From positions 1 through 27,519 of the forward strand of contig CAIVGN010000022.1 in the NCBI GenBank assembly GCA_903905455.1: a stretch of DNA of 27,519 bases, given 5' to 3'. The DNA is from an uncultured Archangium sp. (GTDB taxonomy: Bacteria > Myxococcota > Myxococcia > Myxococcales > Myxococcaceae). Below, piece by piece: positions 1-27,519 of this stretch. The notes below the pieces were generated by a model. That model was given only the letters and a program-made list of their open reading frames with translations. It did not search any database and was not told the origin of the DNA. The first letter of the stretch is position 1. Every line of letters begins with the position of its first letter. The translations under genes and the position numbers were made by a program.

Positions 1-2718
<2,718 letters not shown>

Positions 2719-6715: not shown

Positions 6716-7081
6716 CTAGAGGCCCGCGTAGCGCTGGGCGGGCGCGGGCTGGAGCACGGCCTCGAGCCCGGGCAGGCGCAGGTCGAGCACGTCGGGCCAG
6801 TCGAGCCACACCCCGCGGCAGGCACTGCACGTCTCCACGGGGATGACGCCCGGCAGCAGCACCGGGGTCAGCGACAGGGTGCAGGTGGGGCAGCGCCGCG
6901 CCGTCTGCGCCGAGAGCGGCTCGAGGGCCACCTCGCCGCCCAGCACCTGCTCCAGCTGCAGCCACGTGAACCACGCCCCGCCGCAGGTGCAGCCGGACAA
7001 CGACCCCGCGCGCCCGGCCACCACGCAGGCGCGGCCCTCGAGCGGCAGGTCGCAGTCGGGGCAGCGCAGCGGGCTCACCAC
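6716..7081 (-). CDS. Tandem zf-TFIIB-type zinc-ribbon protein (121 aa as terminated by TAG)
   Basis: Two C-x2-C...C-x2-C-G-G-x-W modules are present: CPDCDLPLEG...CTCGGAWFTW and CPTCTLSLTP...CSACRGVWLDW. GC3 is very high. The GTG start at 7081 or 7078 overlaps the TGA of the upstream REC-EAL gene, giving a GTGA coupling. The gene ends at an in-frame TAG at 6716-6718. See the extension feature and the finding. Confidence 0.7.
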   Translation of the reverse strand: MVSPLRCPDCDLPLEGRACVVAGRAGSLSGCTCGGAWFTWLQLEQVLGGEVALEPLSAQTARRCPTCTLSLTPVLLPGVIPVETCSACRGVWLDWPDVLDLRLPGLEAVLQPAPAQRYAGL

Positions 7082-8335: not shown

Positions 8336-8924
8336 TCAGCGCTGCTGCTCGAGCTGGGCGAAGGCGCCAACCAGCCGCTGCAGTGCCTCTGCGACGCTGG
8401 CCGAATGCATGGTGGCCAGCACCAGGTGACCGGTCTCCGCCGCGGCGAGCGTGAGGCGCATGACCTCGGGGTCGAGCAGCGCCTGCTCGAAGGACGGCGT
8501 GTCGCGGCCGACTTCGCGCTGGCGGATGAAGGACTTCCGCGGCGGGAGGGCGTACTCGACGGGGCTCTCGATGGTGATGATGTGCCGCGCTTCGCGCAGG
8601 TTGATCTCCTGCAGCAGCGCCGCGAGCGTGGAGGTCTTCCCCCCACCCGTCGGCCCACACACCAGCACCAGCCCGTGCGTGGGCTGGACCAGCCGCACCA
8701 GGTCGGGGTGCAGGTTGAGGCTCTTGAGGGTGGCGTGGGAGTTGGTCAGCAACCGAACGGCGAAGCCCACGCCGCGGCTGGTGCGCAGCACGTTGAGGCG
8801 GCAGCGGTTCCCCCTGGATCTTCAGGTTCCCCCGAATCCGGAAGGTGGCCGGGAGCCCACCTTCGAGGTGTACGTCGCTGGCGCCCTGGTCCCGCGCGCT
8901 CTCAATCAACGTCTCGATTCTCAT
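8336..8924 (-). pseudogene. pilT: Decayed PilT/PilU-family type IV pilus retraction ATPase relic (frameshifted, internally deleted, C-terminally truncated)
   Basis: The PilT N-terminus MRIETLIESARDQGASDVHLEGGLPATFRIRGNLKIQGEPLPPQ is read from ATG 8922-8924 in one frame. The core, read in a second frame (table ORF 8336..8791), gives NVLRTSRGVGFAVRLL...GLVLVCGPTGGGKTSTLAALL...HIITIESPVEY...REVGRDTPSFEQAL...LTLAAAETGHLVLATMH. The Walker A box is intact. Roughly 45 aa expected between the two pieces are missing. The Walker B/Asp-box segment (DPDIILVGEMRD in PilT) is reduced to DPEVMR. The reading frame stops roughly 100 aa short of a normal PilT C-terminus. Confidence 0.75.
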
Positions 8925-11825: not shown

Positions 11826-11840
11826 CCCTGCCAACCGACC

Positions 11841-11858
11841 GGCCGGGCCGACCCGGCC
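11841..11858 (+). terminator. Possible GC-rich stem-loop terminator after the lipoprotein gene (no U-tract)
   Basis: GGCCGGG-ccga-CCCGGCC lies 16 nt after stop 11823-11825. There is no T-run after it. Confidence 0.25.
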
Positions 11859-12247
11859 GTCACGAGCATCGCGGGCGGAGGCGTGCCGTGCCTGTCGGGA
11901 CACGCAGACCGCGAGGCGTCAGAGGCCTGAGCGAAGGCTATGGCGGTGCGTGGCCAGGGGAGAGGGCCTCGGCGGTGGCGTGGTGGGTGACGACGGCACG
12001 GACGCGGCGCCCGATGCGCTCGCCTTCGCGGTCGACGGCCACGTCGAGCTTGGCTTCGGACAGCGGAGGACGGCACGCCGAGTGGGCCACGCGGCGCTTC
12101 ACCAGGGCCACCGCCGTCAGCTCCAATGCGGACCTGGCGCGGTGAATCAACCGGGGTCGACACTGGCGGCAGGAAGGCGCGCTTATCCGCCGCGCTCACC
12201 ATTGTCGGGGAGGGCCGCCCAGCCGTGTACGGTGCGTTCACTCTCCC

Positions 12248-15187
12248 GTGCAGGACTCCACATCCACGCTGACGCAGGCCAGGCTCGCGCGCCCTGCGGG
12301 GCGTCGGCTCGCCGTGCTCGTTTCGGGGCTGGTGCTCTTCGTGGGGCTGGGCGTGACGTGGGGCGCGTGGAGCCGTTCCGATGCCGGCGAAGCAGACCGG
12401 CTGCGGACCAACTTCGAGTTCAGCGTGCAGGACGCCGAGGAGCACGTGGCGACGCGCATGGCGGCCCATGAGCAGGTGCTCCGCGGGGTGGCGGCCCTGT
12501 TCTCCGCTTCGGAGCGCGTGGACCGCCACGCGTTCCACGACTACGTCGCCGCGCTGCGCCTCGAGGAGCACTACCCGGGCATCCAGGGCGTGGGCTTCGC
12601 GCTCGTCGTCCCCGCGGCTGCGCTCGACGGTCACGTCCGCGGGCAGCAGGAGGCGGTGCCCGGCTACCAGGTCCGGCCCCCCGGGCCGCGCGAGTTCTAC
12701 ACGTCGATCACCTTCCTCGAGCCGAACTCCGGGAGGAACCTCAAGGCCATCGGCTACGACATGTACTCGGAGCCCGTGCGCCGGGAGGCCATGGCGAGGG
12801 CCCGTGACGAGGGCCGGGCGGTGCTGTCCGGCAAGGTCACGCTGGTGCAGGAGACGCAGACCGCGGTGCAGGCCGGCGTCCTGATGTACCTGCCGGTGTA
12901 CCGGAGCGGCCCAGCGCCCAGCGACGTCAGCCAACGGCGCGAGCAACTGCTGGGCTGGGCGTACATGCCCTTCCGGATGGGCGACCTCATCGCGGGCACT
13001 CTCGGGGCGCGGAGCGACGAGTTGCTCATGCGGATCCACGACGGCGATTCGACGAGCGCCGCGGTGCTGTACGAGTCCACCGGCGCCGACGGGGTTGCCC
13101 CGCTGCTCGAGACCCAGCGCACCATCACGGTCTCCGGTCACCCCTGGACCCTCTCCTTCCGGATCGGTTCGCCGCTCGCCGCCCGGCTGGCGAGCCGCAG
13201 GCCCGCGCTGGTGGCCCTGGGCGACGCCGCCTTGAGCCTCCTCATCGCTTACCTGGTCTGGGTGCTGTTCCGCCGCCGGGACCACGCCGTGGAGGCCGCG
13301 CGCGAGATGAACCGCGAGCTGCTCCAGGCGCACGCGGCGCTCTCGGAGAGCGAGCTGCGCTTCCGGTCGATGGCTGACAGCGCGCCCGTGCTCATCTGGA
13401 CCTCGGGCCTGGACAAGCGCTGCTCTTGGTTCAACAAGCCCTGGCTCGACTTCACCGGCCGCACGATGGCGCAGGAGCTGGGCAACGGCTGGACCGAGGG
13501 CGTTCACCCGGACGATCTGCAGCGGTGCCTCGACACCTACGTGGGCTCGTTCGAACGGCGCGTGCCCTTCACCATGGAGTACCGGCTCCGGCGCCACGAT
13601 GGCGCCTGGCGCTGGCTGGTGGACACAGGGACTCCCCAGCATGACGAGCAGGAGACCTTCGTCGGCTACATCGGCTCGTGCGTCGACATCACCAGCCATC
13701 GGGACGCGGAGGCGAAGATCGAGGAGAGCGAGTCGAGGCTTCGCCTGGCGCTGCGAGGGGGTCAGCTCGGGCTCTGGGACTGGGACGTTCCCTCGGGGCG
13801 GGTCACCTTCAACGAGCGCTGGGCGGAGATCCTGGGCTTCACGCTGGCCGAGGTCGCGCCGAACGTGTCGAGCTGGGAGAACCTGGTGCACCCCGATGAC
13901 CAGGCCGAGACGAACGCGGTGCTCGGCGCGCACCTGCGGGGCGAGACCGCCTCGTACGCGTGCGAGCACCGGCTCCGGCACAAGGACGGGCACTGGGTCT
14001 GGATCCTCGACTCGGGCGTGGTGATGCAACGCGCCGCCGACGGCACGCCGCTGCGCGCCGCCGGGACCCACCTCGACATCAGCGAGCGCAAGCGCACGCA
14101 GGAGGCCCTGCGCCAGAGCCAGCGATTCCTGTCCGAGCTCGTCGAGAACAGCGGCGCGCTCATCTACGCGAAGGAGCGAGACGGCCGGTACCGGCTGGTC
14201 AACGCCCGCTGGGAAGCCGCGACCGGCTTGAAGCGCGAGCACGTGCTCGGCAAGACCGACCAGGAGCTGTTTCCGGGCCCGACCGCGGCAGCCTTTCGAA
14301 GTGTCGACCTCGAGGTGATGGAGGCGGGCTCCGTGGTGGAGCGGTTGGAGAAGCTGGGAGCGGCCTCGCTCCTCTCCATCAAGTTCCCCCTGCGTGACGA
14401 CCACGACCGGGTCACCGGTTTGTGCGGCATGTCCACGGACGTCACCGCGCGCGAGCTGGCGGAGCAGCAGCTCAGGGACCTGCACGTGCGCACCGCGCGG
14501 GCCGAGCGGGTGGCCTCGCTGGGCACCCTGGCCGCGGGCATGGCCCACGAGATGAACAACCCGCTGGCCATCATCCTCGCGAACGTCAGCTTCGCGCAGG
14601 AGCAGCTCAGCGCGGCCCCGCCCCTCTCCCTGGCCGAGCTGAAGGAGGCGCTCGCTGATGCCGCTGCCGGCACGGTGCGCGTCCGTGACCTCGTGGCTGA
14701 TCTCCGGTCCTTCGCCCTGGGCCAGCACACCTCCGAGGGGACGTGCGAGCTCGCCGCGGCGCTGGACCGCGCGGCGCAGGTCGCGCGCCACGCCCGCGCC
14801 GCTGACGCCGCACTGTCGGTGGAGCTGCCTGCGACGCTGCCCCCCGTGACCGGCAGCGAGGCCGAGCTGGCCCAGCTCTTCGGCTGCCTGCTGGTCAATG
14901 CGGGCCAGGCGCAGGCCCACTCGGTGCGAATCAGCGCCGAGGTCAGTGGGCGGGTGGTCAAGGTGCGCGTCGTCGACACCGGCACCGGCATCGCCCCCGA
15001 GATCATGCCGAGGATCTTCGATCCCTTCTTCACCACCCGCGGCGTGGGAAGAGGCAAGGGCCTGGGGCTCCCGGTGGCACTGGGGATCGCGCAGGGCCTG
15101 GGCGGCGGTCTCGAGGTGCACAGCGTCGTCGGACAGGGAACGACCGCGACCGTGACGCTCCCGTTGGCTCCGATCACTCCAGGGTGA
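12248..15187 (+). CDS. Sensor histidine kinase: periplasmic CHASE domain, TM, three PAS/PAC domains, HisKA and HATPase_c; no receiver domain
   Basis: TM1 is LAVLVSGLVLFVGLGV. CHASE-like motifs are present (IGYDMYSEPVRREAMARARDEG...GVLMYLPVY). TM2 is LVALGDAALSLLIAYLVWVLF. Three PAS blocks are recognisable (LIWTSGLDKRCSWFNKPW..., LWDWDVPSGRVTFNERW..., LIYAKERDGRYRLVNARW...). The H-box is AAGMAHEMNNPLAII. The ATPase region reads VRVVDTGTGIAPEIMPRIFDPFFTTR...GKGLGL. The start is GTG 12248. The stop is at 15185-15187. Confidence 0.9.
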   Translation: MQDSTSTLTQARLARPAGRRLAVLVSGLVLFVGLGVTWGAWSRSDAGEADRLRTNFEFSVQDAEEHVATRMAAHEQVLRGVAALFSASERVDRHAFHDYVAALRLEEHYPGIQGVGFALVVPAAALDGHVRGQQEAVPGYQVRPPGPREFYTSITFLEPNSGRNLKAIGYDMYSEPVRREAMARARDEGRAVLSGKVTLVQETQTAVQAGVLMYLPVYRSGPAPSDVSQRREQLLGWAYMPFRMGDLIAGTLGARSDELLMRIHDGDSTSAAVLYESTGADGVAPLLETQRTITVSGHPWTLSFRIGSPLAARLASRRPALVALGDAALSLLIAYLVWVLFRRRDHAVEAAREMNRELLQAHAALSESELRFRSMADSAPVLIWTSGLDKRCSWFNKPWLDFTGRTMAQELGNGWTEGVHPDDLQRCLDTYVGSFERRVPFTMEYRLRRHDGAWRWLVDTGTPQHDEQETFVGYIGSCVDITSHRDAEAKIEESESRLRLALRGGQLGLWDWDVPSGRVTFNERWAEILGFTLAEVAPNVSSWENLVHPDDQAETNAVLGAHLRGETASYACEHRLRHKDGHWVWILDSGVVMQRAADGTPLRAAGTHLDISERKRTQEALRQSQRFLSELVENSGALIYAKERDGRYRLVNARWEAATGLKREHVLGKTDQELFPGPTAAAFRSVDLEVMEAGSVVERLEKLGAASLLSIKFPLRDDHDRVTGLCGMSTDVTARELAEQQLRDLHVRTARAERVASLGTLAAGMAHEMNNPLAIILANVSFAQEQLSAAPPLSLAELKEALADAAAGTVRVRDLVADLRSFALGQHTSEGTCELAAALDRAAQVARHARAADAALSVELPATLPPVTGSEAELAQLFGCLLVNAGQAQAHSVRISAEVSGRVVKVRVVDTGTGIAPEIMPRIFDPFFTTRGVGRGKGLGLPVALGIAQGLGGGLEVHSVVGQGTTATVTLPLAPITPG

Positions 15188-15551
15188 GCTTCTCGTCGAC
15201 GTCGGCCTCGCCCCGTATCGGCTGAGGCAGGGCGTCGAGCAGCGGCCGCAGCAGGTTGAGCGCGGTGCTCACCTCGAAGCCGGCGCGGGGGCGGGGGCGG
15301 CTCGTGGTCCATTCAGCCTGCCCTCGCCCGCGCTGAGGCCGACGCCCTCCTGCACGAGCCGCAGCGCAGACGCCGCTTCGCTGCGACGGGAAGTTCAGCG
15401 AGTCGTCCCACGCGCCGGCGGTGAGGGTGCCGCTGGCGCCGGGGTTGGCGGGGACGACGCTGCTGCCAGCGCCGTCGCCTGCCCCGGAGAAGCTGGAGAG
15501 TCCACAACCCAACAACGCCAGGGAACCGAGCAACCAGCGCGAAGTGCGCAT
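15174..15551 (-). pseudogene. Gene-fragment ORF: a lipoprotein signal peptide plus about 40 aa, then Arg/Pro-rich out-of-frame-like sequence, then a REC-domain fragment (RAGFEVSTAL)
   Basis: ATG at 15549-15551 gives MRTSRWLLGSLALLGCGLSSFSGAGDG...TLTAGAWDDSLNF (lipobox LLGC). The frame then reads ...GRRPQRGRGQAEWTTSRPRPRAGFEVSTALNLLRPLLDALPQ.... The RAGFEVSTAL codons are a 33-bp exact copy of codons 26-35 of the REC-EAL gene. The ORF overlaps the 3' end of the kinase gene on the opposite strand. Confidence 0.4.
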
Positions 15552-15686
15552 GCGGCCCCCCACAGCACTGCCGCGCCGGCGTCCTCCGCTCGGAAGGCCC
15601 TGCGGCCAGCGGCCGAACCGTGACAGCGATGCCCTGATCGCGATGCCCCGGTTCCCGCGGCCGTCCCTCCCTGCCCGGCCTCTCGC

Positions 15687-15968
15687 TCAGGGCTTCGGAT
15701 CAGGCGGCGTGAAGGCGTCGGTGCCGACCTCGGTGCCAGGGCCGCGGCCCACCAGGTCTTCACCTTCCCAGCGCTGCTGGCCCCCCCCGAACTCGAACGA
15801 CCAGCGCAGCCGCCACTGTTCGCTCCAGTCGACGGTGTCGATGAGCTTCTCCTCGCGGTGGTTCAGCGGCCCTTCGAGGACCTCGAGCCTGGCCGAGGTG
15901 AGCGCATGGATCTCGTAAAGGTCGCCCTCGCTCTTCTTGTGCAGTCCGCTGCCCGCGAGCTGATCCAT
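15687..15968 (-). CDS. Hypothetical small protein (94 aa), possibly a relic
   Basis: ATG at 15966-15968 (minus strand) gives MDQLAGSGLHKKSEGDLYEIHALTSARLEVLEGPLNHREEKLIDTVDWSEQWRLRWSFEFGGGQQRWEGEDLVGRGPGTEVGTDAFTPPDPKP. GC3 is roughly 86%. I recognise no domain. Its start lies only 8 bp from the start of the divergent ORF 15976. Confidence 0.35.
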   Translation of the reverse strand: MDQLAGSGLHKKSEGDLYEIHALTSARLEVLEGPLNHREEKLIDTVDWSEQWRLRWSFEFGGGQQRWEGEDLVGRGPGTEVGTDAFTPPDPKP

Positions 15969-15975
15969 CGTCAGC

Positions 15976-16560
15976 GTGGCGCCGGGTACCAGGTGGGCGG
16001 TCCAGAACACGACTGACGCCACGGGCAGCGTCATCGTGGTGAGCACCGCCAACGACGCGGACTCCGCGGGCGAGGTGCTCTCGCTCGATCCGGCGTCGAC
16101 GTTCCAGTACTGGGCGTTCCACACCCCGACCTCGACGACCACGCAGGCAAGCTGGCGGCCCGGCGGCTACCACGCGCTGGCGATCTCCCCGAGCGGCGGG
16201 ACGCTGAACCGGCGCCTCTTCGCTTCGTTCGGAAGCCTGCTCGCGGCGAACTCGTGGAGCACCAACCAGCTGGTCTGGAATCGCGCGTTCGACAGCCAGG
16301 CGTTCTGGGAGGAACACGAGGGCCCCATCGCCGGCGCGGCCCTGGCGGCGTCCTGGTCGCCCGCCGGAACCGGGCCGCTGGCGGTGCTGTGGAGTGAAGG
16401 ACGGCTCCGGGTGGGCAACGTGCTGTTGGGCCTGCGGGAGGTGCCCACGGGCCTGCAGCTGGCCGACGCGAAGATCGTCCGCTTCTCGAGCGAGGGGAGG
16501 CTGTGGATCGGCGGGCCCGGAGGGTTGTTCGTCACGCGCGTCCCCGTCGTCGTGCCGTAG
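15976..16560 (+). CDS. Hypothetical protein (194 aa; no signal peptide; may be a C-terminal fragment of a larger beta-rich protein)
   Basis: GC3 exceeds 90% over the whole ORF, which is a strong coding signal. The sequence reads ...GSVIVVSTANDADSAGEVLSLDPASTFQYWAFHTP...GRLWIGGPGGLFVTRVPVVVP. An in-frame TGA at 15961 caps the frame just upstream of the GTG start. It is convergent with the MVP gene. Confidence 0.5.
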   Translation: MAPGTRWAVQNTTDATGSVIVVSTANDADSAGEVLSLDPASTFQYWAFHTPTSTTTQASWRPGGYHALAISPSGGTLNRRLFASFGSLLAANSWSTNQLVWNRAFDSQAFWEEHEGPIAGAALAASWSPAGTGPLAVLWSEGRLRVGNVLLGLREVPTGLQLADAKIVRFSSEGRLWIGGPGGLFVTRVPVVVP

Positions 16561-16614
16561 CCTCCGTGGAAGCAGCAGGGCGATGGCCTCCGAATTCCGG
16601 CCGCCCGGTGCGCC

Positions 16615-18729
16615 TCACTTCTCCTCGCGCATCCCCGGCAGGCCGGCGAGAAGCCGCTGCGCCACGTCCGACACCGACTCTCCACCCAGGATGGCGAGGG
16701 GCGAGAGGTTCCGGGTGAGCGACGCGGCGAACTGCTGGTTGCCCAGGGACTTGAGGGTCGCCACCAGTTCGGGGTGGAGCGCGGCCATCTGTTCCTTGAA
16801 GGCGGCGGTGCGCGCCACCAGGCGCTGCGTTTCGAGGGCCACGCGCCGTTCCTTCGCCAGGCCCTCGGCGCTGGAGGTGATGGCCAGCGCCTCGGCCTCG
16901 GCGCGGGCGCGACCCAGGGCCTCGAGACGCACGGCCTCGCCATGGGCCTCCACCTGGGTGAGGTGCAGCGTGCGGCGAGCCAGCTCGAGCTCGTTCTGCA
17001 CCCCGAGCGTCTCGCGCTGCGCGGCCCAGATGGCGCGGGCCACGGCCTCGCGGGTCTCCTCGGTCTGCAGGCGCAGGTGCTCGCCCTTGCGCGCCACCTC
17101 GGCGGTGATGGCGGTGCGCTGCGCGTCGGTGAGCAACGCCTCCACGGCCTCGTCGAGGATGCGCACGTCGAGCACCTCTACGTCGGACAGCGCCATGCCG
17201 TTCTCTTCGAACTCGCGGCCGCTGCGCTTCTCGGCCTTCTTCTCGCCCAGCAGCGCGGTGCGCAGAATCTCCGCCGAGGCCGCGTGGAAGCGCTCGATGG
17301 GCGTCAGCCGCACGGCGGCGCGCACGATGCTCCCCAGGTGGTCGCACAGCAGGCCCACGTAGTTCGACACCGAGAACCAGCGCGCGTCGTCGACGCCGTC
17401 GCGGTGCACGAAGCCCACCCGGTACGAGAGGCGCACCTCGAGCTCCACGTGGTCCGCGGTGCGCACCCGCACCACGTCGCTGACCTTGTTCCCCTCCACG
17501 CGCAGGAAGCAGGTGGTCAGCAGCACCTCGTCGCGCTTGGGCGTGCCGGTGGAGAGGGCCAGCGCCTCGAGCGACTCGTCGAAGGCCAGCACGCGCACCG
17601 CCGGGCCGCGCAGCACCTCGCGGGTCTGGGTGCCGGTCACCAGCACCGCCTCGCCGGGGGGCACCACCACCGTGGGCGCCCGCGAGGCGTCCGCGCGAGA
17701 GAGGCCCCAGCGCCTCGCCGTCTCGGGGTCGAGCACCCGGCTGACGCGCTCGACCTGGGTGGGGTCGGGCAGCAGCGCCAGCGGGCCCTCCACGGTGCGC
17801 ACCGCGCCGGTGTGGAGGTCGCGCAGGTAGACCGCCTCCTTCGCGGCGAGCTGCACCGCGGCCACCTCGCCCAGCACCTCCAGGGCCTCGGAGGGGAAGA
17901 AGTAGCCCTCGCGGGCGTGCACGAAGAGCTCCTGGCCCGGCTCGTAGCGGCCCTTCGGCACGGCCTCGCCCTCCTGGGCCTCGAAGCCCTGGAGCACGCG
18001 CACGTGGAGCCCGCGGTCGCGCTTGAGGGGCCAGGCGGCGCACACCCGGGTGCCGTTCTTCACCAGGAACTCTTCCCACGCCTCGGGGAAGACCACGGCC
18101 GGCCCGCGCTCGTAGCGCCTGCGCCCCTTCGGCCCGCGGAGCACGCAGTACTGGCCGTCGAGCAGGGTGACGGCGTTGCGCACGTAGCTGCCCTTCTCGT
18201 CGGGGAGCACCTCGAGGCCGGTGGGGGGAATGAAGAAGCTCACCTCGCTGCCCTTGATGATGCGCTCGGTGCCGATGGCGGCGCTCTCCCCGTCGACCAC
18301 GTCGTAGACGCGCAGGCGCAGGTACTGGTCTTCGGAGAGCTCGTGGCCCGCGACGACGCGCGCCTTCTGGCCGGGCCAGAGGGGAAAGGTGGCCGGGCCG
18401 GGCACCACCACGCGGCGCCCCACGCGCAGCTCCACCGCCGAGTTGTTGCCCTTGACCGGCCGCATGGCCGGGTCCTTCGCGGGGTTCTCGAGCACCAGGT
18501 ACTGCGCGCTGGACGCGGTGACGAAGGGCTGGACGCCGTTGCCCTCTTCGCCGCGCATGGGGGTGAAGCGGTCGAGCTTGAGCTCCACGAGGCGCTCGGT
18601 GTTCGACAGCGAGATCTTCGTGGGGCCCACGTAGAGCACGATGTCGCCCTTGGTGAGGTCCTGGACGTAGGCGTACTCGTTCGATGCCACGAGGATGTCG
18701 CGTTCCCTGCTGCTGTCCCGGTCGGCCAT
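16615..18729 (-). CDS. Bacterial homologue of the major vault protein (MVP): N-terminal MVP repeat domains, SPFH-like shoulder and a long cap-helix coiled coil (704 aa)
   Basis: ATG at 18727-18729 gives MADRDSSRERDILVASNEYAYVQDLTKGDIVLYVGPTKISLSNTERLV, which parallels the human MVP N-terminus ([39 protein letters not shown]). The repeat region contains IIKGSEVSFFIPPTGLEV (compare MVP VVKGEKSFFLQPGEQLEQ) and GQYCVLRGP (compare HNYCVILDP). The shoulder reads ARWFSVSNYVGLLCDHLGSIVRAAVRLTPIERFHAASAEILRTALLG (compare MVP [47 protein letters not shown]). A coiled-coil segment of roughly 130 aa follows (ARKGEHLRLQTEETREAVARAIWAAQRE...LETQRLVARTAAFKEQMAALHPELVATLKSLG). The stop is at 16615-16617. The table ORF begins 22 codons upstream, but Met23 aligns with the MVP start. 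Confidence 0.85.
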   Translation of the reverse strand: MADRDSSRERDILVASNEYAYVQDLTKGDIVLYVGPTKISLSNTERLVELKLDRFTPMRGEEGNGVQPFVTASSAQYLVLENPAKDPAMRPVKGNNSAVELRVGRRVVVPGPATFPLWPGQKARVVAGHELSEDQYLRLRVYDVVDGESAAIGTERIIKGSEVSFFIPPTGLEVLPDEKGSYVRNAVTLLDGQYCVLRGPKGRRRYERGPAVVFPEAWEEFLVKNGTRVCAAWPLKRDRGLHVRVLQGFEAQEGEAVPKGRYEPGQELFVHAREGYFFPSEALEVLGEVAAVQLAAKEAVYLRDLHTGAVRTVEGPLALLPDPTQVERVSRVLDPETARRWGLSRADASRAPTVVVPPGEAVLVTGTQTREVLRGPAVRVLAFDESLEALALSTGTPKRDEVLLTTCFLRVEGNKVSDVVRVRTADHVELEVRLSYRVGFVHRDGVDDARWFSVSNYVGLLCDHLGSIVRAAVRLTPIERFHAASAEILRTALLGEKKAEKRSGREFEENGMALSDVEVLDVRILDEAVEALLTDAQRTAITAEVARKGEHLRLQTEETREAVARAIWAAQRETLGVQNELELARRTLHLTQVEAHGEAVRLEALGRARAEAEALAITSSAEGLAKERRVALETQRLVARTAAFKEQMAALHPELVATLKSLGNQQFAASLTRNLSPLAILGGESVSDVAQRLLAGLPGMREEK

Positions 18730-18863
18730 GGGGAGGCGCAGAGCCAGAGACGTGCCACGCGCAAGGCGGCGGGACGGCGCGTGAGGCTGCACCACCCTGG
18801 CCCACGGCGCACCGTGTTGGAGCCCCCATGCCCCGAAACGGGTGACATACTCTCGCGCGCTTC

Positions 18864-20624
18864 ATGGCTCCCCCGCGCGCGAAGACCGCCTTCACCCTCA
18901 CCGTCACCAAAGACGGCGCGAGCGTCATGGCCACCTTCGAGAGCGGCGCGGCGCGGCTGGGGCGGGCGCCGGAGAACGACGTGGTGATCAACGACGCGCT
19001 CGCCTCGCGCGTGCACGCCCGCATCTTCCACGAGGCCGGGCGCTTCTTCGTCGAAGACCTGCAGAGCACGGCGGGCACGCGGCTCAACGGGGGCCGGCTC
19101 GCCGCGCGGGCCGAGCTCAAGCCGGGAGATCGCCTCGCCATCGGCCAGGTCACCGTGCTCTTCACCACCGGGGTCGACCCCGCGTCGACGCTCGACGAGT
19201 CGGCGCGGCCCGCCCCCAGCGTGCTCGACCAGGCGACGACCCTCCGGCCTGCCTTCACCCCGCCTCCCCCTCCGCCTGCACAGGGCGCGGCCACCGGTCT
19301 CGACGCGTCGACGGTGCTGCGGCCGGCCTTCAGCCCGCCCCGGCCCAGCGGCACGCACAAGGCCGCGCCGGCGCCGGCGGCCACCAGCGAGAGCTTCAGC
19401 GACGTACCCACGGTGGAGCTCGTCAACCGGGGCCTGGTGAAGCCCCCCACCCCGGTCGCCACCAGCGAGAGCTTCAGCGACGTCCCCACGGTGGAGCTCG
19501 TCAACCGCGCGGTGCTCCAGGGCCCGGCCCCCGCCGGCGCCAGCGCGTGGGACGGGAAGTTCGAAGACGCGGCGACCCGGGAGTTGCTGCCGGGCGAGGC
19601 GCTCGCGAAGTCGTCAGCCGCCAAGGACCTGCTGGCCGAGCAGCCCACGCGGTCGCTGACCGAAGAGAGCAACCGGCTGCTGGCCGCCGACGTGGCCCGC
19701 GAGCGGCGGGCGCTGCAGAAGACGAGCGCCGGCCGCGCGCAGCTGTGGTGGGCGTCGGTGCCAGCGGCGTTGAAGGCCGCGCTCGCCGTGGTCCTGATGC
19801 TCACCTTCACCGCGGTGGTGTGGGTGCAGCAACCGACGGCGGCTCCGACCGGGCCCCGCATGCCCGACGAGCTGGTGCCCAACGGCGACGCGCTGGCGCT
19901 CTCGTTCGGCGCGGGCCCGGGGGCCGAGGTGCAGGTCGCCGAGTCGAAGGCCTTCTTCTTCACGCCCTTCGCCGCGACCCGGCTGGTGGGCGTGCTGCAC
20001 TTTCGCGCCCACGACTGCGGGCAGAACGAGGTGCACATCGAGCTCAACGGCGCGCCGGTGGCCTTCGTGCCCGCCGACACCGCGCAGAGTGACGTGGAGC
20101 TGGAGCATGTGTTGCCCTCGGGGCTGCTCAAGGTGGGCGCCAACAACCAGCTCACCTTCGAGAACGTGCGCCAGGGCGACGACGACGAGACCTGGCGCAT
20201 CGCCGGGCTGTGGGTGGAGCTGATTCCCCTGCCGGAGCTCACCAGCCAGCAGGCCAGCACCCGGGCGCAGGACTCCATCGACCAGGCCACCCAGCTCTAC
20301 GAGCTGAAGAAGATCGGCGCCATCAACCTGTTCCGCGCGTGGAAGAGCTACCGCGAGGCCTGGCTGGTGCTCGAGGCCACGGCCGACCACGACGCCGCCC
20401 TGCAGCAGTTCGCCCTGACGCGCATGCGCGACCTCCGGCCCGAGCTCGACCAGAAGTGCACCGCCATCCTCGTGCAGTACGAGCAGGAAATGAGTCGGCG
20501 GTACCCCAGCCTCAAGAAGGCGCGGAAAATTTTGCAGGGCGTCCCGGCGCACTTCGGCAAGGAGCACCCCTGCCTCGACATGAGCCGGCACCTGCTGCGG
20601 CAGGTGAGCGAGGACGCGAAGTAG
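18864..20624 (+). CDS. FHA-domain protein with a Pro-rich repeat linker, one TM helix and a C-terminal domain of unknown function (586 aa)
   Basis: The FHA domain reads GRAPENDVVINDALASRVHARIFHEAGRFFVEDLQSTAGTRLNGGRLAARAELKPGDRLAIGQVTV. A Pro/Ala-rich linker follows, with a 2x26-aa tandem repeat. The TM helix is LWWASVPAALKAALAVVLMLTFTAVVWV. The C-terminal domain of roughly 270 aa is probably extracytoplasmic. It is divergent from the MVP gene, with a 134-bp intergenic gap. Confidence 0.85.
   Translation: MAPPRAKTAFTLTVTKDGASVMATFESGAARLGRAPENDVVINDALASRVHARIFHEAGRFFVEDLQSTAGTRLNGGRLAARAELKPGDRLAIGQVTVLFTTGVDPASTLDESARPAPSVLDQATTLRPAFTPPPPPPAQGAATGLDASTVLRPAFSPPRPSGTHKAAPAPAATSESFSDVPTVELVNRGLVKPPTPVATSESFSDVPTVELVNRAVLQGPAPAGASAWDGKFEDAATRELLPGEALAKSSAAKDLLAEQPTRSLTEESNRLLAADVARERRALQKTSAGRAQLWWASVPAALKAALAVVLMLTFTAVVWVQQPTAAPTGPRMPDELVPNGDALALSFGAGPGAEVQVAESKAFFFTPFAATRLVGVLHFRAHDCGQNEVHIELNGAPVAFVPADTAQSDVELEHVLPSGLLKVGANNQLTFENVRQGDDDETWRIAGLWVELIPLPELTSQQASTRAQDSIDQATQLYELKKIGAINLFRAWKSYREAWLVLEATADHDAALQQFALTRMRDLRPELDQKCTAILVQYEQEMSRRYPSLKKARKILQGVPAHFGKEHPCLDMSRHLLRQVSEDAK
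19380..19535. repeat. Tandem direct repeat, 2 x 78 bp, in frame in the FHA-protein linker
   Basis: ATSESFSDVPTVELVNRGLVKPPTPV is followed by ATSESFSDVPTVELVNRAVLQGPAPA. The DNA is near-identical over about 55 bp of each unit. Confidence 0.85.
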
Positions 20625-20674
20625 GCAGAAGCGCGCTGCCGAACGCGGCTCGGATCCGCTAGCCTTCGCGGCCG

Positions 20675-21505
20675 GTGCGTCGTCCTCGAGCCAGTCGCGT
20701 AGGCAGGGTCCTCGGGGGCGCGGCGCTGCTGGGCGCGGTGCTCGGCGCGGCCCTGGGCGCGGTGAACGACCGGTCGCTGGAAGCCGCGCAGGCCGAAGTG
20801 CTCAGCGCTTCCCCGGGCGCGGCGAAGTGGGTGCTCTCGCCGCCGCGGCCTTCCCCCGAGGCGCTGGCCGCGCTGCCCCCGTTCCCCGACGCCGAGGCCC
20901 GGGCGCTCTTCTCCTCGAGCACCCTTTCGGGCACGCCGCTGGGCATCGCGTGGTTCTCCACGAAGTGGCCGGTGGAGTCGGTGCTCGCCTACTACGCGGA
21001 GTACTTCCGGCTGCTGTCGCGGCCCGCGGTGCGCCACCTCTACTCGCCGTCGTCGGGCTACGTGGCGTGGTTGGAGACGGACGCGGTGCGCAGCCCGGGG
21101 CGCGGGGCGCTGCACATGGTCTCGGCCCTGCGGCAACGCGACGAGACGGTGGTGTTCCTCTCGGTGAACGACCCGCTGGCCCTGACCCAGGCGCCGCCCG
21201 AGGCCCTGCCCGACGACGTGGCGGTGCCGCCCCGGGGTACGCCGCCGCGCGTGTTCCGCCAGCTCGACGAGGGCCGCGCGGTGCAGGTCATCGGGTTGTC
21301 GGTGCCGGCCCAGAGTCCCGAGGACGTGCTCGCCTTCTACCGGGCGCACTTCACGGACACCGGCTGGTCGCTGCAGGACGTGGAGCAGGTGGACGGGCTG
21401 CAGGTGCTGGTGGCGTCGCGCGGCAAGTCGCAGCAGACGGTGCTCGCCTCCCGGTCCGGCCCGGGCGACGTCGACGTGGTCATCTCGCGGGAGGTGCACC
21501 CGTGA
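20675..21505 (+). CDS. Hypothetical signal-anchored or secreted protein (about 276 aa; start uncertain)
   Basis: The N-terminal hydrophobic segment is VLGGAALLGAVLGAALGAV. The first 8 codons have low GC3, so the true start may lie downstream. GC3 is high from about 20700. The stop TGA 21503-21505 overlaps the GTG of the next gene (GTGA). The ORF sits 50 bp downstream of the FHA gene. Confidence 0.55.
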   Translation: MRRPRASRVGRVLGGAALLGAVLGAALGAVNDRSLEAAQAEVLSASPGAAKWVLSPPRPSPEALAALPPFPDAEARALFSSSTLSGTPLGIAWFSTKWPVESVLAYYAEYFRLLSRPAVRHLYSPSSGYVAWLETDAVRSPGRGALHMVSALRQRDETVVFLSVNDPLALTQAPPEALPDDVAVPPRGTPPRVFRQLDEGRAVQVIGLSVPAQSPEDVLAFYRAHFTDTGWSLQDVEQVDGLQVLVASRGKSQQTVLASRSGPGDVDVVISREVHP

Positions 21506-22299
21506 GGCGCCGGGGCCAGGCCGCGGTGGAGACGGCGCTGGTGATGCCGCTGTTCGTGTTCCTGGTCCTGGGCACGCTGCAGCTCTCGCTGGTGCACCAG
21601 GCGCGGTTGATGACCAAGTACGCCGCGTACAAGGCGGCGCGGGCGGGCTCCATCGGCAGCGCGGCGTGGAACGACATGGACACGGCGGCCCTGGCGGTGC
21701 TGATGCCCATGGCCAGCAGCGGGGCGGCGGGCATCGAGCGCGTGTTCCCCGCGACCACCCCCACGGAGTGGTCGCGCTCGTGGGAGAAGATCAAGGACAA
21801 CCGGCAGTCACCGCCCATCCCCTACGTGGTGGTGCAGGTGTGCAACCCCACGCTGCCCCGGCTGCGCGCCCAGGCGGCGGCGGCGGGCATCGACCTCAAC
21901 AAGGGCGTGGACTTCGACGACCCGCGGCTGCTGGGCGACGCGTGGGCCACCTACAACGTCACGCGGCTGCAGGTGCAGGTGACGTTCTACTACCGGATGC
22001 CCATCCCCTTCGCGAACGCCATGCTGTGGATGATGGCGCGCGGGGTGGAGCACGACGACGCGGTGCGCACGCTGCGCATGACGCCGGGCACGGTGCGCGA
22101 GAGCCTCAACCCCAACGGCGGCAAGCGCACCATCGAGAAGGTCCCCATCCAGGAGCGGGCCGACGCGCACGAATACATCCTCCCCATTCGCGCCTCGTGG
22201 GGCATGCGCATGCAGTCCAAGCTGTGGCCCGACCTCGAGGGCTTCGAGCTGCCGGACACCAACCTGTGCTCGGTGCCGTGGAAGAAGGAGGGCTCGTGA
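21502..22299 (+). CDS. TadE-like (Flp-pilus-assembly pseudopilin-like) N-terminal domain protein, 265 aa
   Basis: The N-terminus VRRRGQAAVETALVMPLFVFLVLGTLQLSLV matches the TadE-like family (R-G-x-A-A-V-E-F-A-L plus a hydrophobic helix). The remainder is a Cys-containing domain of about 200 aa. Starts and stops form GTGA overlaps at both ends. Confidence 0.8.
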   Translation: MRRRGQAAVETALVMPLFVFLVLGTLQLSLVHQARLMTKYAAYKAARAGSIGSAAWNDMDTAALAVLMPMASSGAAGIERVFPATTPTEWSRSWEKIKDNRQSPPIPYVVVQVCNPTLPRLRAQAAAAGIDLNKGVDFDDPRLLGDAWATYNVTRLQVQVTFYYRMPIPFANAMLWMMARGVEHDDAVRTLRMTPGTVRESLNPNGGKRTIEKVPIQERADAHEYILPIRASWGMRMQSKLWPDLEGFELPDTNLCSVPWKKEGS

Positions 22300-23939
22300 A
22301 GCACGCCCGGCGGGGACAGGTGTTGGCGCTGGCGTCGCTCTCGGTGCTCTTCATGGCGCTGACCATGGCCATGAGCTTCAGCATCTCGAGCGCCATCCAC
22401 GAGCGCATCCGGCTCCAGTCGCAGGCCGACGCGCAGGCCTTCTCGGTGGCCACCATCGAGGCCCGCGGGCTCAACGTGATGGTCTACACCAACCGCACCA
22501 TCGCGGCCCTGGTGGTGACCAACATGTCGGTGCACGCGTGGCACGCCATCGCCTCGCAGACCGAGAACATCCTCGCCTCGAGCCAGGCGGGCATGCTCCA
22601 GGTCGCGGCCCAGGAAGACGCCTGCTGCGAGCGCAGCGGCCACGGGCGCCGCAGCCCCCCCGAAGACCGCGACGCGTGCTGCAACGACGCCGACCGGGCG
22701 CGGGAGATCTCCGCCGCCTTCGGGGCCGAGGCCCAGAAGTGGGACACCCTGCTCATCGGCACCGAGCCCGCCTTCAACGAGACCGTCGACGGGCTGAACA
22801 AGGCCGCCGCGGCGATGCACGTGCTGCAGAAGCGCACCCTGGAGCGCGTGGCCACCGAGGTCAGCCAGCCCACCGTGGGCACGCTCAAGGTGCTCAAGGA
22901 GCGCAACGCCCCGCGGTCCGAGTACGTGCCCGCGCTGCACGCCGTGAACCGCACCGAGTTCTCGTGCGCCGTCGAAGGGTGGAAGGAGCCCGACGACTGC
23001 CGCACGCTGATGGGCCTGACGCTGCCGCGCCTGACGCCGCCCAAGCGCAGCGTGATCATCGAAGACGTGTCGAACGCCGCCCGCGGCTCGTTCCAGCAGT
23101 ACTGCGCCAAGGGCCAGTGCGAGGCCGTGGGCCACCCCGACTTCCAGCCGAGCTCGGCCTACCTGCTGGGCATCATGGGCGGCGAGGGCAGCGTGTGCCT
23201 GGGCTTCGACGGCAAGGCCGGGGTGACCAAGCTGGCCCACACCCTGCCCCCGCGAAACACCTTCGAGGCCGAGTCGGTGGGCGCGGAGACGGCGGGCGGG
23301 TTGATGGTGGGCTGGCGCCACGGCAAGGGCTCGGGGTCGCTGGTGAGCAACGCCTTCTCGGACGAGGCGGGGGGCGTGCACGGGCCGGGGCACAGCGGGC
23401 GCCACGACCAGTTCCGCGGCATCCAGCGCCAGGAGGTCTGCCAGCGCACCGAGTCGTGCTTCATCAACTTCCGCGGCCTCGACCCCAGCACGCGGGGCCG
23501 CACCAAGGGGGGCGACGAGGTGGCGCTCTCGCTCAAGGACAACGATCTCGGCCTGCCCAGCGCCTGGGGCGTGGTGAAGCAGGACCTGGGGCTGCTGCGC
23601 TCGGGCAAGAAGGGGCCGTGGCAGCTCAACGACGAGGGCACGGTGACGCTCAAGTGGGGGCCGCACGTGAAGGCCACGGCGCACCTCGCGCCGGGTGAAG
23701 GCGTGGCGGTGGCCAAGGCCAAGGTCTACTTCCACGAGCTGGGCAGCGACCGGGTCCCGGTGCCCAACCTCTTCGACCCGTTCTTCCGCGCGAAGCTCGA
23801 GCGCTTCCGCTGCCTGGAGCTGGTGGAGGTGCTGATGCTCGCCGGTGACGTCGAGGGCGCGACGCTGGTGCGGGAGCTGCGGGCCCCGGTGGAAGGTCAA
23901 CGACAGATGTCGGGCTGCACGGCCGAGGAGGCAGAGTGA
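22296..23939 (+). CDS. Large TadG/Tad_N-like protein, 547 aa
   Basis: The N-terminus VKHARRGQVLALASLSVLFMALTMAMSFSISSAIHERIRL matches the TadE/G-like (Tad_N) family. A Cys-rich central region follows (CCERSGHG...DACCNDADRAREI...). GC3 is high. GTGA overlaps are present at 22296-22299 and 23936-23939. Confidence 0.8.
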   Translation: MKHARRGQVLALASLSVLFMALTMAMSFSISSAIHERIRLQSQADAQAFSVATIEARGLNVMVYTNRTIAALVVTNMSVHAWHAIASQTENILASSQAGMLQVAAQEDACCERSGHGRRSPPEDRDACCNDADRAREISAAFGAEAQKWDTLLIGTEPAFNETVDGLNKAAAAMHVLQKRTLERVATEVSQPTVGTLKVLKERNAPRSEYVPALHAVNRTEFSCAVEGWKEPDDCRTLMGLTLPRLTPPKRSVIIEDVSNAARGSFQQYCAKGQCEAVGHPDFQPSSAYLLGIMGGEGSVCLGFDGKAGVTKLAHTLPPRNTFEAESVGAETAGGLMVGWRHGKGSGSLVSNAFSDEAGGVHGPGHSGRHDQFRGIQRQEVCQRTESCFINFRGLDPSTRGRTKGGDEVALSLKDNDLGLPSAWGVVKQDLGLLRSGKKGPWQLNDEGTVTLKWGPHVKATAHLAPGEGVAVAKAKVYFHELGSDRVPVPNLFDPFFRAKLERFRCLELVEVLMLAGDVEGATLVRELRAPVEGQRQMSGCTAEEAE

Positions 23940-25207
23940 GGCGAGCCCCCCGAGGCGCGGCGATGGTGGAGCTGGCGCTGCTGATGATCGTCCTGGTCCC
24001 GATGATCCTCTACACGCTCTTCCTGAGCGACCTGCTGCTCTACAACCTCGACTGGCAGGAGGCGGTGACCAGCCCGGCGTGGGACGCGGCGCCGCTCGAC
24101 TTCCCGTCGCTGTCGAGGCCGGTGGAGGCCGCGGCGCGGGTGCAGGCCATCGACCGCAAGGTGTTCTGCGACCACAGCTCGGCCTACGACTCGTTCAACA
24201 CCGCGGTGGACTGCGCCGACGACCGGCACCACCAGGCGCTGGGCGCGCACCAGTGCTGGATGGGCGGCGGCAAGCAGGTGACGTGCGGGGTGAACCCCGG
24301 GCTGGGCAACGTGGAGCAGAGCTACAACCACCGCTTCAACCGGGGCGGGCTGCTGAGCTGCACCGCGCGCTTAGGCGTGCAGAACTACCTCATCGTGCAG
24401 AAGTTCCTCTCGTGGGGGCAGGACCTGACGCGCACCAGGAAGTTCGAGGGCACCGACGTGCACGGCAACGCCAGCAGCGCGTCCACCTCGAACGCGTGGG
24501 TCTTCGGGGCGCAGGGCAGCGGCGCGAGCTCGCCGTCGGAGATCGAAGGCGAGCCGGGCACCTCGCAGACCGAGACCGAGGACCTGCCGTCGGGCACCAC
24601 GCGCAGCGACGACTTCTTCGCCGTGCTGCACGACCCGTGGGCGCTCAACCACCTCGCCACCATTCTCCCGGACGACGGGCAGCGCGAAGCGCACCCCTTC
24701 TACGCGCGCGTCGAGCACTACTACTACTCGCAGTCGCCGGTGCCCGAGGAGCGGCCGGGGGTCGACGGGGCCGAGACCTACGCGGGCAAGCTGCAGGCGA
24801 TGGGCGCCCTGGGCCCGACGGCCAACACCGAGCAGAACGAAGACGCGATGGGTGACCTGCCGCTGGTGCCCAACCTCGCCTTCAAGGCCGCGAAGGACAT
24901 CGACGGCGTGCTGGGCTTCGTCAAGCAGCCCGGCGGCGGCCGGATGATCAGCATGGGGCCCTGCTTCTCGCACGGCTGCCGCTTCGACGCGCCGCCGGTG
25001 CCGCCGCCCGACCTGGGGCTGATTCCCCCGGACCCGGACAACCCGAAGGGGGGCGAGATCCCCGGTGGAGGTGGGCCGCCGACGCCGGTGGGCGCGCCGC
25101 CGACCGCGCACGCCACGTCGGGCGCCACGCCGGCCATGACCGCCGCGGCGAACGCGCCCTCGCCGCCGCCCGCGCCGACCTCGGCCCCGCCGCGCTCGCC
25201 GTTCTGA
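23936..25207 (+). CDS. TadE-like domain protein with a Pro-rich C-terminus, 423 aa
   Basis: The N-terminus VRRAPRGAAMVELALLMIVLVPMILYTLFL matches the TadE-like family. The sequence contains conserved-looking Cys residues. The C-terminus is PPVPPPDLGLIPPDPDNPKGGEIPGGGGPPTPVGAPPTA.... The stop is at 25205-25207. Confidence 0.8.
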   Translation: MRRAPRGAAMVELALLMIVLVPMILYTLFLSDLLLYNLDWQEAVTSPAWDAAPLDFPSLSRPVEAAARVQAIDRKVFCDHSSAYDSFNTAVDCADDRHHQALGAHQCWMGGGKQVTCGVNPGLGNVEQSYNHRFNRGGLLSCTARLGVQNYLIVQKFLSWGQDLTRTRKFEGTDVHGNASSASTSNAWVFGAQGSGASSPSEIEGEPGTSQTETEDLPSGTTRSDDFFAVLHDPWALNHLATILPDDGQREAHPFYARVEHYYYSQSPVPEERPGVDGAETYAGKLQAMGALGPTANTEQNEDAMGDLPLVPNLAFKAAKDIDGVLGFVKQPGGGRMISMGPCFSHGCRFDAPPVPPPDLGLIPPDPDNPKGGEIPGGGGPPTPVGAPPTAHATSGATPAMTAAANAPSPPPAPTSAPPRSPF

Positions 25208-27278: not shown

Positions 27279-27497
27279 AGGGGTTCGGAATCGGAATCGG
27301 TGCGGCTTCGATGGGAGGCGTGCGTCTCCTGCGATCGGCAGAGGTCGTGTGTTGGTTTGGGTGCCGGGGATCGCCCCAATCCCTTCCTTTCCCCCCGGGG
27401 AAAGGGGAGCGCTCATCTGCCGCGCGGGCGAGACGAGCGCACAGAAATACGGGGCAAGGCCTCCATTTTCAGGAACGAATCGGTGTTGCTTGATCCA

Positions 27498-27519
27498 CCG
27501 TCGGCCCTCGACGGTTTTC
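27498..27519 (+). terminator. Hairpin plus T-tract, a rho-independent-terminator-like element, at the window end
   Basis: CCGTCG-gccct-CGACGG is followed by TTTTC. A second GC hairpin (CCTTTCCC-cccg-GGGAAAGG, about 27386-27405) lies roughly 100 nt upstream. Both lie 110-220 nt downstream of the OmpA-like stop, in an otherwise ORF-free stretch. Confidence 0.45.

Follow-up and report, generated by a model that had tools for sequence, protein, structure and literature searches.

The 27,519-nt stretch of DNA analysed here (the window), from contig CAIVGN010000022.1 of an uncultured Archangium sp., has a GC content of 71 %, and its genes were told apart by GC content at third codon positions (GC3) together with a gene caller. 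Our subject is a block of five genes on its plus strand, three of which encode proteins resembling the minor pilins at the tip of the Kil pilus of Myxococcus xanthus, and the divergently oriented gene that precedes them, which encodes a major vault protein (MVP) homologue. The six genes, with protein lengths in amino acids (aa) and the evidence for each, are the following:

16615-18729, minus strand: MVP homologue, 704 aa, with Pfam MVP_shoulder; a longer open reading frame (ORF) reaches 18795
18864-20624, plus strand: bitopic membrane protein with an FHA domain and one transmembrane helix (FHA-TM protein), 586 aa, with Pfam FHA and Yop-YscD_cpl
20675-21505, plus strand: 276-aa protein (p276), called on GC3; a later gene-caller start gives 255 aa
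21502-22299, plus strand: KilM-like minor pilin, 265 aa, from Pfam TadE and homology
22296-23939, plus strand: KilN-like large minor pilin, 547 aa, from homology and an AlphaFold2 (AF2) model
23936-25207, plus strand: KilL-like minor pilin, 423 aa, from homology and a weak TadE match

With the gene-caller start of the MVP-like gene at 18729, a divergent gap of 134 bp separates it from the FHA-TM gene at 18864. Stop/start overlaps of the form GTGA, at 21502, 22296 and 23936, link the p276, KilM-, KilN- and KilL-like genes. This layout (genes, strands, gap and overlaps) had been proposed in a preliminary description of the same DNA, and it held up in the GC3 analysis and on checking the sequence. 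The gene caller starts the KilL-like gene 27 nt downstream of the GTG in the overlap; the KilN/KilL overlap is probably real, because only with the upstream GTG does the gene encode the prepilin motif RRAPRG↓AAMVE (the arrow marks the predicted cleavage site). Four-base stop/start overlaps are frequent in operons of GC-rich genomes, and those seen here indicate an operon and nothing more unusual. Promoter and terminator scans were uninformative at the GC content of the window. None of the six proteins matched a PADLOC model, i.e. any of the known anti-phage defence systems represented there.

As described by Herrou et al. (2025, Nat Commun, PMC12075869), Kil is a Tad-like prey-killing pilus of M. 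xanthus whose filament is capped by interchangeable Tip heterotrimers of KilM, KilN and KilL. Their account lists four Tip clusters (Tip1, MXAN_0354-0356; Tip2, MXAN_0738-0740; Tip3, MXAN_1146-1148; Tip4, MXAN_4658-4660), three of which (Tip1-3) lie at a distance from the machinery clusters MXAN_3102-3108 and MXAN_4648-4661. It presents the Tip proteins as rich in Cys and disulfides, the Tip genes as confined to Myxococcota, the KilM paralogues as 27-41 % identical to one another, and KilN as a large protein with two long helices and a beta-scaffold for which it reports no PDB homologue (PMC12075869). The second machinery cluster, MXAN_4648-4661, is kil gene cluster II (Seef et al., eLife 2021, PMC8460266).

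None of the published M. xanthus deletion primers for Tip1-4 matched the window, which is therefore not M. xanthus DNA, and the comparison had to use proteins. As a reference we used a locus of Myxococcus landrumensis (CP071091; L050). It represents the Tip3/KilO region, because the published M. xanthus Tip3 upstream and kilO primers map there, fitting at the expected places with 2-4 mismatches. Loci of this type in cultured species are laid out as KilM-KilN-KilL, followed by a gene of ~285 aa and then by a small Flp gene. L050 itself carries two KilM-KilN-KilL clusters in tandem (10001-18432 of that locus), the first followed by genes of 282 aa and 67 aa and the second by a 59-aa KilO-like Flp, so that in this cultured species a Tip cluster has been duplicated locally.

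The preliminary description had taken the last three genes of the block for Tad-type minor pilins, and their domain matches, leaders and relatives all agree with this. The KilM-like protein matches Pfam TadE (5e-13) and has 369 homologues, with 41-45 % full-length identity to those of cultured Myxococcus, Corallococcus, Pyxidicoccus and Archangium; against both KilM proteins of L050 it is 41 % identical over the full length. The KilN-like protein has no Pfam match of its own, the Tad family PF13400 being carried by two of its homologues; it is 29-30 % identical to Tip3-region KilN over the full length (E = 1e-53 to 1e-56) and aligns with KilN4, of kil gene cluster II, with an hhalign probability of 99.5 % over the N-terminal 86 aa. 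The KilL-like protein matches TadE weakly (0.03) and is 32-35 % identical to Tip3-region KilL over aa 3-266. Judged through these relatives of the M. xanthus proteins (the L050 Tip3 region and KilN4), the 265-, 547- and 423-aa proteins are homologues of KilM, KilN and KilL and, together, a divergent copy of the Tip trio. Their genes are adjacent and co-oriented, in the order KilM, KilN, KilL. We also note that the KilL-like protein ends in a tail of ~150 aa (24740-25207), rich in Gly, Pro, Ala and Ser, which lies outside the aligned segment and is unmatched by the cultured homologues.

All three proteins begin with what reads as a prepilin leader, in which a hydrophobic alpha1 helix comes after the cleavage Gly, so that processing is predicted for each. 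The KilM-like leader is VRRRG↓QAAVE, with the glutamate at position 5 (Glu5) present, and that of the KilL-like protein is VRRAPRG↓AAMVE. The motif G↓XXXXE is family-wide in KilM and found in 39 of 45 members of the KilL family. Glu5 is absent from the KilN-like leader, VKHARRG↓QVLAL, in which RG↓QV(L/M)xL is conserved across the family. Invariant residues and leader motifs are retained in all of the window's pilins. The proteins had also been called Cys-rich; the KilM-, KilN- and KilL-like proteins have 2, 13 and 7 Cys.

An AF2 model of the KilN-like protein (pLDDT 80, pTM 0.73) contains a 110-residue N-terminal helix, two more long helices and a beta-scaffold, and found no specific fold match in the PDB. 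The predicted structure is in keeping with what is known of KilN: a large pilin whose distal domain would consist of two long helices and a beta-scaffold without PDB homologue. In the GspK-I-J complex of the type II secretion system (T2SS), the largest and tip-most subunit, GspK, lacks Glu5; by analogy, its loss from KilN is what would be expected of a subunit at the very tip.

A KilN profile, run against species-representative genomes, retrieved 49 related Tip loci, every one of them from a metagenome-assembled genome (MAG) of uncultured Myxococcaceae/Archangiaceae. Of these, 47 have KilM, 47 have KilL, 44 have the 276-aa family (usually directly downstream of KilL) and 37 have the FHA protein next to the Tip genes; the order KilM-KilN-KilL is seen in 47 of the 49 as well as in the Tip3-region loci. 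The cNMP-binding, ATP-grasp, OmpA and MVP neighbours of the window were each found in 0 of the 49. Unbiased clustering of neighbouring ORFs gave, as the typical MAG order, FHA - KilM - KilN - KilL - p276-like - (Cys-rich 74 aa) - Flp, the Flp having the motif G↓QAMVEY. The nearest relative (L054; KilN 56 % identical) has the order FHA - p276 - KilM - KilN - KilL, the same as the window, and a metallo-beta-lactamase-fold gene upstream where the window has MVP. The conserved unit is made up of five genes, 18864-25207, and the earlier view that the FHA gene and the four coupled genes form one operon-like block is supported. Compared with most sister loci, in which a KilO/KilK-like Flp adapter gene is still within the cluster, the window is without this adapter and its p276 gene has moved upstream; L054 has no Flp adapter gene either.

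The 74-aa protein of the MAG loci is conserved in 12 of them (e.g. L008:5526-5750), where its gene separates the p276-like gene from the Flp adapter; it has a signal peptide and 8 Cys with CxxxC-type spacing. Genes of 236 aa (with a transmembrane helix) and 554 aa recur downstream of it, and none of the three proteins has a Pfam match.

The absence of Tad machinery from the window, pointed out in the preliminary description, was confirmed: no gene for CpaF/TadA, TadB/C, a secretin, a prepilin peptidase or Flp was found within the 27,519 nt. Canonical Tad machinery (ATPase, platform, secretin, Flp, peptidase) was likewise not found within 10 kb in 57 related loci, and KilB, KilG and KilH genes are absent from the window and from the same 57 Tip loci. 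On the right flank every assembly ends just after an OmpA-family gene, and the search for machinery there covers up to 27.5 kb.

The MVP-like protein is a genuine homologue of its namesake. It matches Pfam MVP_shoulder (1e-29) and aligns with rat MVP in phmmer (E = 7e-30, aa 188-651 on 275-765), covering the repeats, the shoulder and the cap-helix of the eukaryotic vault shell. Bacterial MVP homologues are on record in Myxococcales, Cytophagales and Oscillatoriales (Daly et al. 2013, PMC3762200; Sokolskyi 2019, bioRxiv 10.1101/872010). In the preliminary description this gene was tied to the FHA and TadE-like genes, and the tie did not survive comparison of loci: besides the 49 MAG loci, MVP is missing beside the Tip genes of L054, whose five-gene order is identical, and from all cultured-species Tip and kil loci examined. 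In the opposite direction, we collected 58 metagenomic MVP loci and assessed the 25 of at least 5 kb for neighbours. The Tip genes (KilM/N/L), p276 and the periplasmic domain of the FHA protein occurred in 0 of these 25, and the MVP gene had no conserved neighbour among them.

We therefore find it scarcely credible that MVP, FHA-TM and the four coupled genes make up one new, autonomous and Tad-independent envelope-spanning system, co-regulated from the divergent promoter. The MVP and FHA genes are indeed adjacent, across their 134-bp divergent intergenic region, several contigs, from one strain or near-identical ones, show the arrangement again, and the window is free of Tad machinery; but the comparison in both directions found no link, the very outcome that the preliminary description had named as refuting its hypothesis, and each of the remaining five genes has a homologue in the Kil system. 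We see the MVP gene as a chance neighbour outside the conserved module, presumably transcribed independently, and a false lead is thereby removed: this bacterial vault-protein homologue is not part of the Tip system. MVP homologues encoded on contigs of ~34 % GC (L065, L067, L072) are 54-57 % identical to the protein of the 71 % GC window, which points either to strong conservation or to horizontal transfer between phyla.

Turning to the two genes that accompany the trio, p276 has an N-terminal signal-anchor, contains two alpha/beta-module repeats and is free of Cys. Its family corresponds to a precomputed and uncharacterised Pfam entry (PF27226, AF_1845); our local Pfam scan gave no match, and neither an NCBIfam match nor a sequence relative in the PDB was found. 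It is 29-30 % identical, over the full length, to the gene product that follows KilL in the Tip3-region loci L050 and L051. The profile of the family also recovers g258, encoded directly after KilL4 in Myxococcus stipitatus (hmmsearch 3.7e-10; hhalign probability 93 %, E = 2.8e-7).

In the FHA-TM protein (Pfam FHA 6e-17, Yop-YscD_cpl 1e-12) the FHA domain is N-terminal and cytoplasmic; after it come a long Pro-rich linker, with repeats centred on Thr, a single transmembrane helix and a domain in the periplasm that is conserved. GR, SxxH and NG, the canonical FHA residues, can be read in its sequence. An AF2 model of the C-terminal half (pLDDT 77) shows the periplasmic domain as a beta-sandwich with a helical bundle, and the domain ends in an EHxC motif, as it does in the family of kil cluster II. 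A profile of this domain retrieved 481 representative proteins by exhaustive search (a word-indexed search gave 12 relatives); the domain is always C-terminal, and an FHA domain accompanies it in 59 of the 66 proteins examined.

Two members of this family come from kil gene cluster II itself, in Corallococcus (L116) and M. stipitatus (L120); the two loci are assigned to that cluster because in each of them the kilK 3' primer from the literature falls on the stop of the Flp gene, with 1 mismatch in the former and 0 in the latter. Over the transmembrane and periplasmic parts, the window protein is 35 % identical to the Corallococcus protein (325 aa, E = 5e-50) and 33 % to that of M. stipitatus (298 aa, E = 3e-42), and its FHA domain is 43-44 % identical to theirs. 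In Corallococcus the gene immediately follows the row Flp - RcpC/CpaB - T2SSF - T2SSF and precedes a second, FHA-TPR gene. The M. stipitatus row reads KilM4 - KilN4 - KilL4 - g258 - g274 - Flp - g248 - g238 - KilB - KilG - KilH - FHA - FHA/TPR. The position after KilH corresponds to MXAN_4649, which is annotated only as 'FHA, PrgH/EprH-like, unknown function' (Seef et al., PMC8460266). In the window and in 41 Tip loci the FHA-TM gene instead adjoins the Tip genes, with no T2SSF gene nearby, and having no KilG/KilH neighbours it is therefore a paralogue, not an orthologue, of the protein at the MXAN_4649 position.

The linker of the window protein (aa ~105-290) contains an exact 17-aa repeat, ATSESFSDVPTVELVNR, present twice. 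A motif T-[LMVIF]-[LMV]-[KR]-x has 23 matches in 15 of 66 family proteins, all close family members (alignment A4), compared with 4.0 +/- 2.0 in shuffled sequences; examples are DPNATLLKPP in the family and GLDASTVLRPAF and DQATTLRPAF in the window protein. The Thr motifs and the repeat are possible phospho-acceptor or FHA-ligand sites. A general enrichment of Thr followed by a hydrophobic residue in FHA linkers was not supported (100 observed, 92 expected). FHA-based signalling, raised in the preliminary description, is a reasonable idea.

All five genes have counterparts in kil cluster II and the machinery genes are absent, so the block resembles a condensed version of the non-machinery ends of that cluster, of which it would be an orphan paralogue. 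This raises the question of whether it is a decaying, non-functional partial duplicate left at a rearrangement junction, which we regard as very improbable. A truncated T2SSE fragment (8336-8791) and short ORFs without homologues (15174-16560) lie in the same window, and the cluster has lost its Flp adapter and had its p276 gene moved relative to most sister loci. Against decay, the five ORFs are intact, with a GC3 of 0.95-0.97 except for 0.83 on the longer ORF (21666-23939) that contains KilN, and their invariant residues and leader motifs are kept. Identical proteins are encoded on 6-7 contigs from different samples. The rearranged order is moreover common to L054, whose KilN is 56 % identical, and has therefore been maintained over considerable divergence.

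With homologues both in the Tip3 region and in kil cluster II, the genes are better understood as an accessory cluster of a known machine than as an autonomous complex. We consider it highly likely that 18864-25207 is a putative operon supplying an alternative tip for a Kil-type contact-dependent killing pilus whose machinery is encoded elsewhere. The label of 'undescribed system' given to it in the preliminary description has to be withdrawn, since orphan KilM-KilN-KilL clusters were already published and the FHA and 276-aa proteins are paralogues of kil-cluster-II components.

Several points weigh against this interpretation. The KilN-like protein is only ~30 % identical to Tip3-type KilN, and its match to KilN4 is confined to the N-terminal 86 residues. 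The window encodes neither Kil machinery nor a major pilin nor an adapter Flp (KilK/KilO-like), so that the partner machine is assumed. Among the Tip clusters compared, which came from orphan loci of cultured species and from kil cluster II, the lineage seems closest to Tip3-type by full-length similarity and by its p276-like gene. In the literature we found no experimental work on MXAN_4649-like or p276-like proteins. As for the position of the lineage, in a neighbour-joining tree the cultured Tip3-region KilN proteins (L050, L052) group with the MAG loci L030 and L036, apart from the main MAG radiation that holds the window.

In a further alternative, a module derived from a Tip would now work independently of pilus assembly, its three pilin-like proteins staying membrane-anchored or acting as pseudopilus, adhesin or effector-presenting proteins, with FHA-TM as their signalling partner and perhaps with a needle-less type III secretion system (T3SS) in place of the Kil platform. 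The lineage does possess an FHA-TM paralogue of its own, whose cytoplasmic domain is YscD/PrgH-like, the window has no adapter Flp, the KilN distal domain is highly divergent, and Herrou et al. report that the activity of Tip1-3 depends on T3SS* (PMC12075869). A pilus-independent role is nevertheless improbable in our view: the prepilin leader and Glu5 motifs are kept family-wide in KilM and KilL, a KilO/KilK-like Flp adapter is still found in most sister clusters, and the homologous FHA protein is encoded directly after the platform genes KilG and KilH and not in the T3SS cluster.

If the block does supply a Kil tip, its mode of action can be sketched by analogy with the M. xanthus work. The motor, platform, secretin and major pilin would be encoded elsewhere in the genome. 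The KilM-, KilN- and KilL-like prepilins would be cut by the prepilin peptidase at the conserved Gly, and the mature pilins would join through their N-terminal helices into a disulfide-stabilised helix-bundle heterotrimer, with the large, Glu5-less KilN as its backbone and exposed distal domain. This trimer would prime and cap the Flp (KilP) filament of the Kil machine and, during predation, might determine, by way of the divergent distal domain of KilN, the prey surfaces to be recognised. FHA-TM (bitopic, with YscD/PrgH-like topology) and p276 (periplasmic and membrane-anchored) are dedicated paralogues of two uncharacterised cluster-II components, and their linkage to the Tips suggests that they may help to load or license their own Tip at the inner-membrane platform, possibly under Ser/Thr-phosphorylation control.

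One can go further and imagine that each alternative Tip in this lineage has its own copies of FHA-TM and p276 as a Tip-specific loading gate, in which FHA would read phospho-Thr motifs on the cytoplasmic side and the periplasmic domain would pass the chosen trimer to a shared Kil platform. We put forward such phospho-regulated tip-switching of a Tad pilus as speculation, and think it rather unlikely; if true, it would give a first function to the kil-cluster-II genes at the positions of MXAN_4649 and MXAN_4657.

Set beside known systems, the block is most like Tip3 (MXAN_1146-1148 and KilO). Both have adjacent M-N-L genes, class-III prepilin leaders, Cys-rich proteins and a KilN with long helices and a beta-scaffold. 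Both are distant from machinery and restricted to Myxococcota, the homology is full-length, and Tip3-type loci have a p276-like gene directly after KilL. The differences are nonetheless clear: the window proteins are only 30-41 % identical to those of Tip3, a range comparable to the 27-41 % among KilM paralogues, the lineage is found only in uncultured MAGs, p276 lies upstream instead of downstream, and there is no KilO-like Flp. The window cluster also includes an MXAN_4649-like FHA-TM gene, and none stands beside the Tips in the four cultured-species orphan loci (L050-L053). Kil cluster II, as seen in M. stipitatus and Corallococcus, contains homologues of all five window genes; it differs in also having KilK (Flp), KilB (RcpC/CpaB), KilG/KilH (TadB/C) and the second FHA-TPR protein, which the window does not have.

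Resemblance to more distant systems is looser. The minor pilins of canonical Tad/Flp loci (Aggregatibacter, Pseudomonas, Caulobacter) share the TadE/Tad_N prepilin-like N-terminal segment, and Herrou et al. present TadE, TadF and TadG of such loci as predicted tip-like dimers or trimers with TadG as the backbone (PMC12075869). The canonical TadE/F/G genes lie inside a full tad operon, together with the CpaF/TadA ATPase, TadB/C, the RcpA/CpaC secretin, Flp and a prepilin peptidase, whereas in the window there is no machinery nearby, the proteins are much larger and an FHA protein is associated. In the T2SS (GspK-I-J) and in type IVa pili (PilVWX-FimU), too, the filament is primed and capped by minor (pseudo)pilins that form a helix bundle. 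These tip complexes, with a GspK that lacks Glu5 as KilN does, belong to different families and machines, and are likened to the trio by general features, not by sequence.

What is new here is modest: a Tip lineage found only in uncultured Myxococcaceae/Archangiaceae MAGs, with ~30 % KilN identity to cultured Tips and with its own MXAN_4649-like FHA paralogue. Counting the ~50 divergent MAG loci, predatory myxobacteria appear to have a broader range of Tips than the four or five types known from complete genomes. The FHA-TM family (encoded after KilH in cluster II) and the family encoded after KilL repeatedly travel with Tips without the machinery, and are therefore nominated as Tip-handling or Tip-regulating factors, an idea that can be tested genetically in M. 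xanthus.

The remaining features of the window are these:

7-2718, plus strand: C-terminal piece of Topoisom_bac (aa 5-117) fused to a complete RecQ helicase (DEAD, Helicase_C, RecQ_Zn, HRDC), in a single ORF that runs off the left end
3881-6181, plus strand: predicted lipoprotein/surface protein, 766 aa, with CarboxypepD_reg domains
7075-8223: response-regulator-EAL gene, overlapping the 3' side of the PilT fragment
8336-8791, minus strand: PilT/T2SSE fragment, 151 aa (Pfam 6e-23)
9981-11825, plus strand: predicted lipoprotein/surface protein, 614 aa, with a Gly/Thr-rich repeat, GGGTAGGETGGGTAGGGTGGGT..., and no Pfam match
15174-15563 (minus strand), 15687-16142 (minus strand) and 15976-16560 (plus strand): three short, partly overlapping ORFs supported by GC3

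The 151-aa fragment is truncated, as expected of the PilT relic reported in the preliminary description. It is 42 % identical to intact PilT paralogues that 13 MAG loci encode at a distance of 5-10 kb from their Tip cluster, so this Tip lineage may repeatedly have PilT genes as neighbours on the chromosome. The short ORFs had no Pfam match and no homologue in the ~120 fetched loci, and tblastx of 15150-16620 against all loci gave low-complexity noise only; they may be gene fragments or lineage-specific genes. On the right (~27279-27519), every assembly, including contigs of 34 kb and 91 kb from different samples, stops just after the OmpA-family gene, so a repeat or other assembly-breaking element probably lies directly beyond it. 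Near the other end, the linker between the topoisomerase and RecQ parts of the fused ORF contains a tandem repeat of ~26 aa, GRPVRPLTPALSPL(P/A)QGEGGTA.

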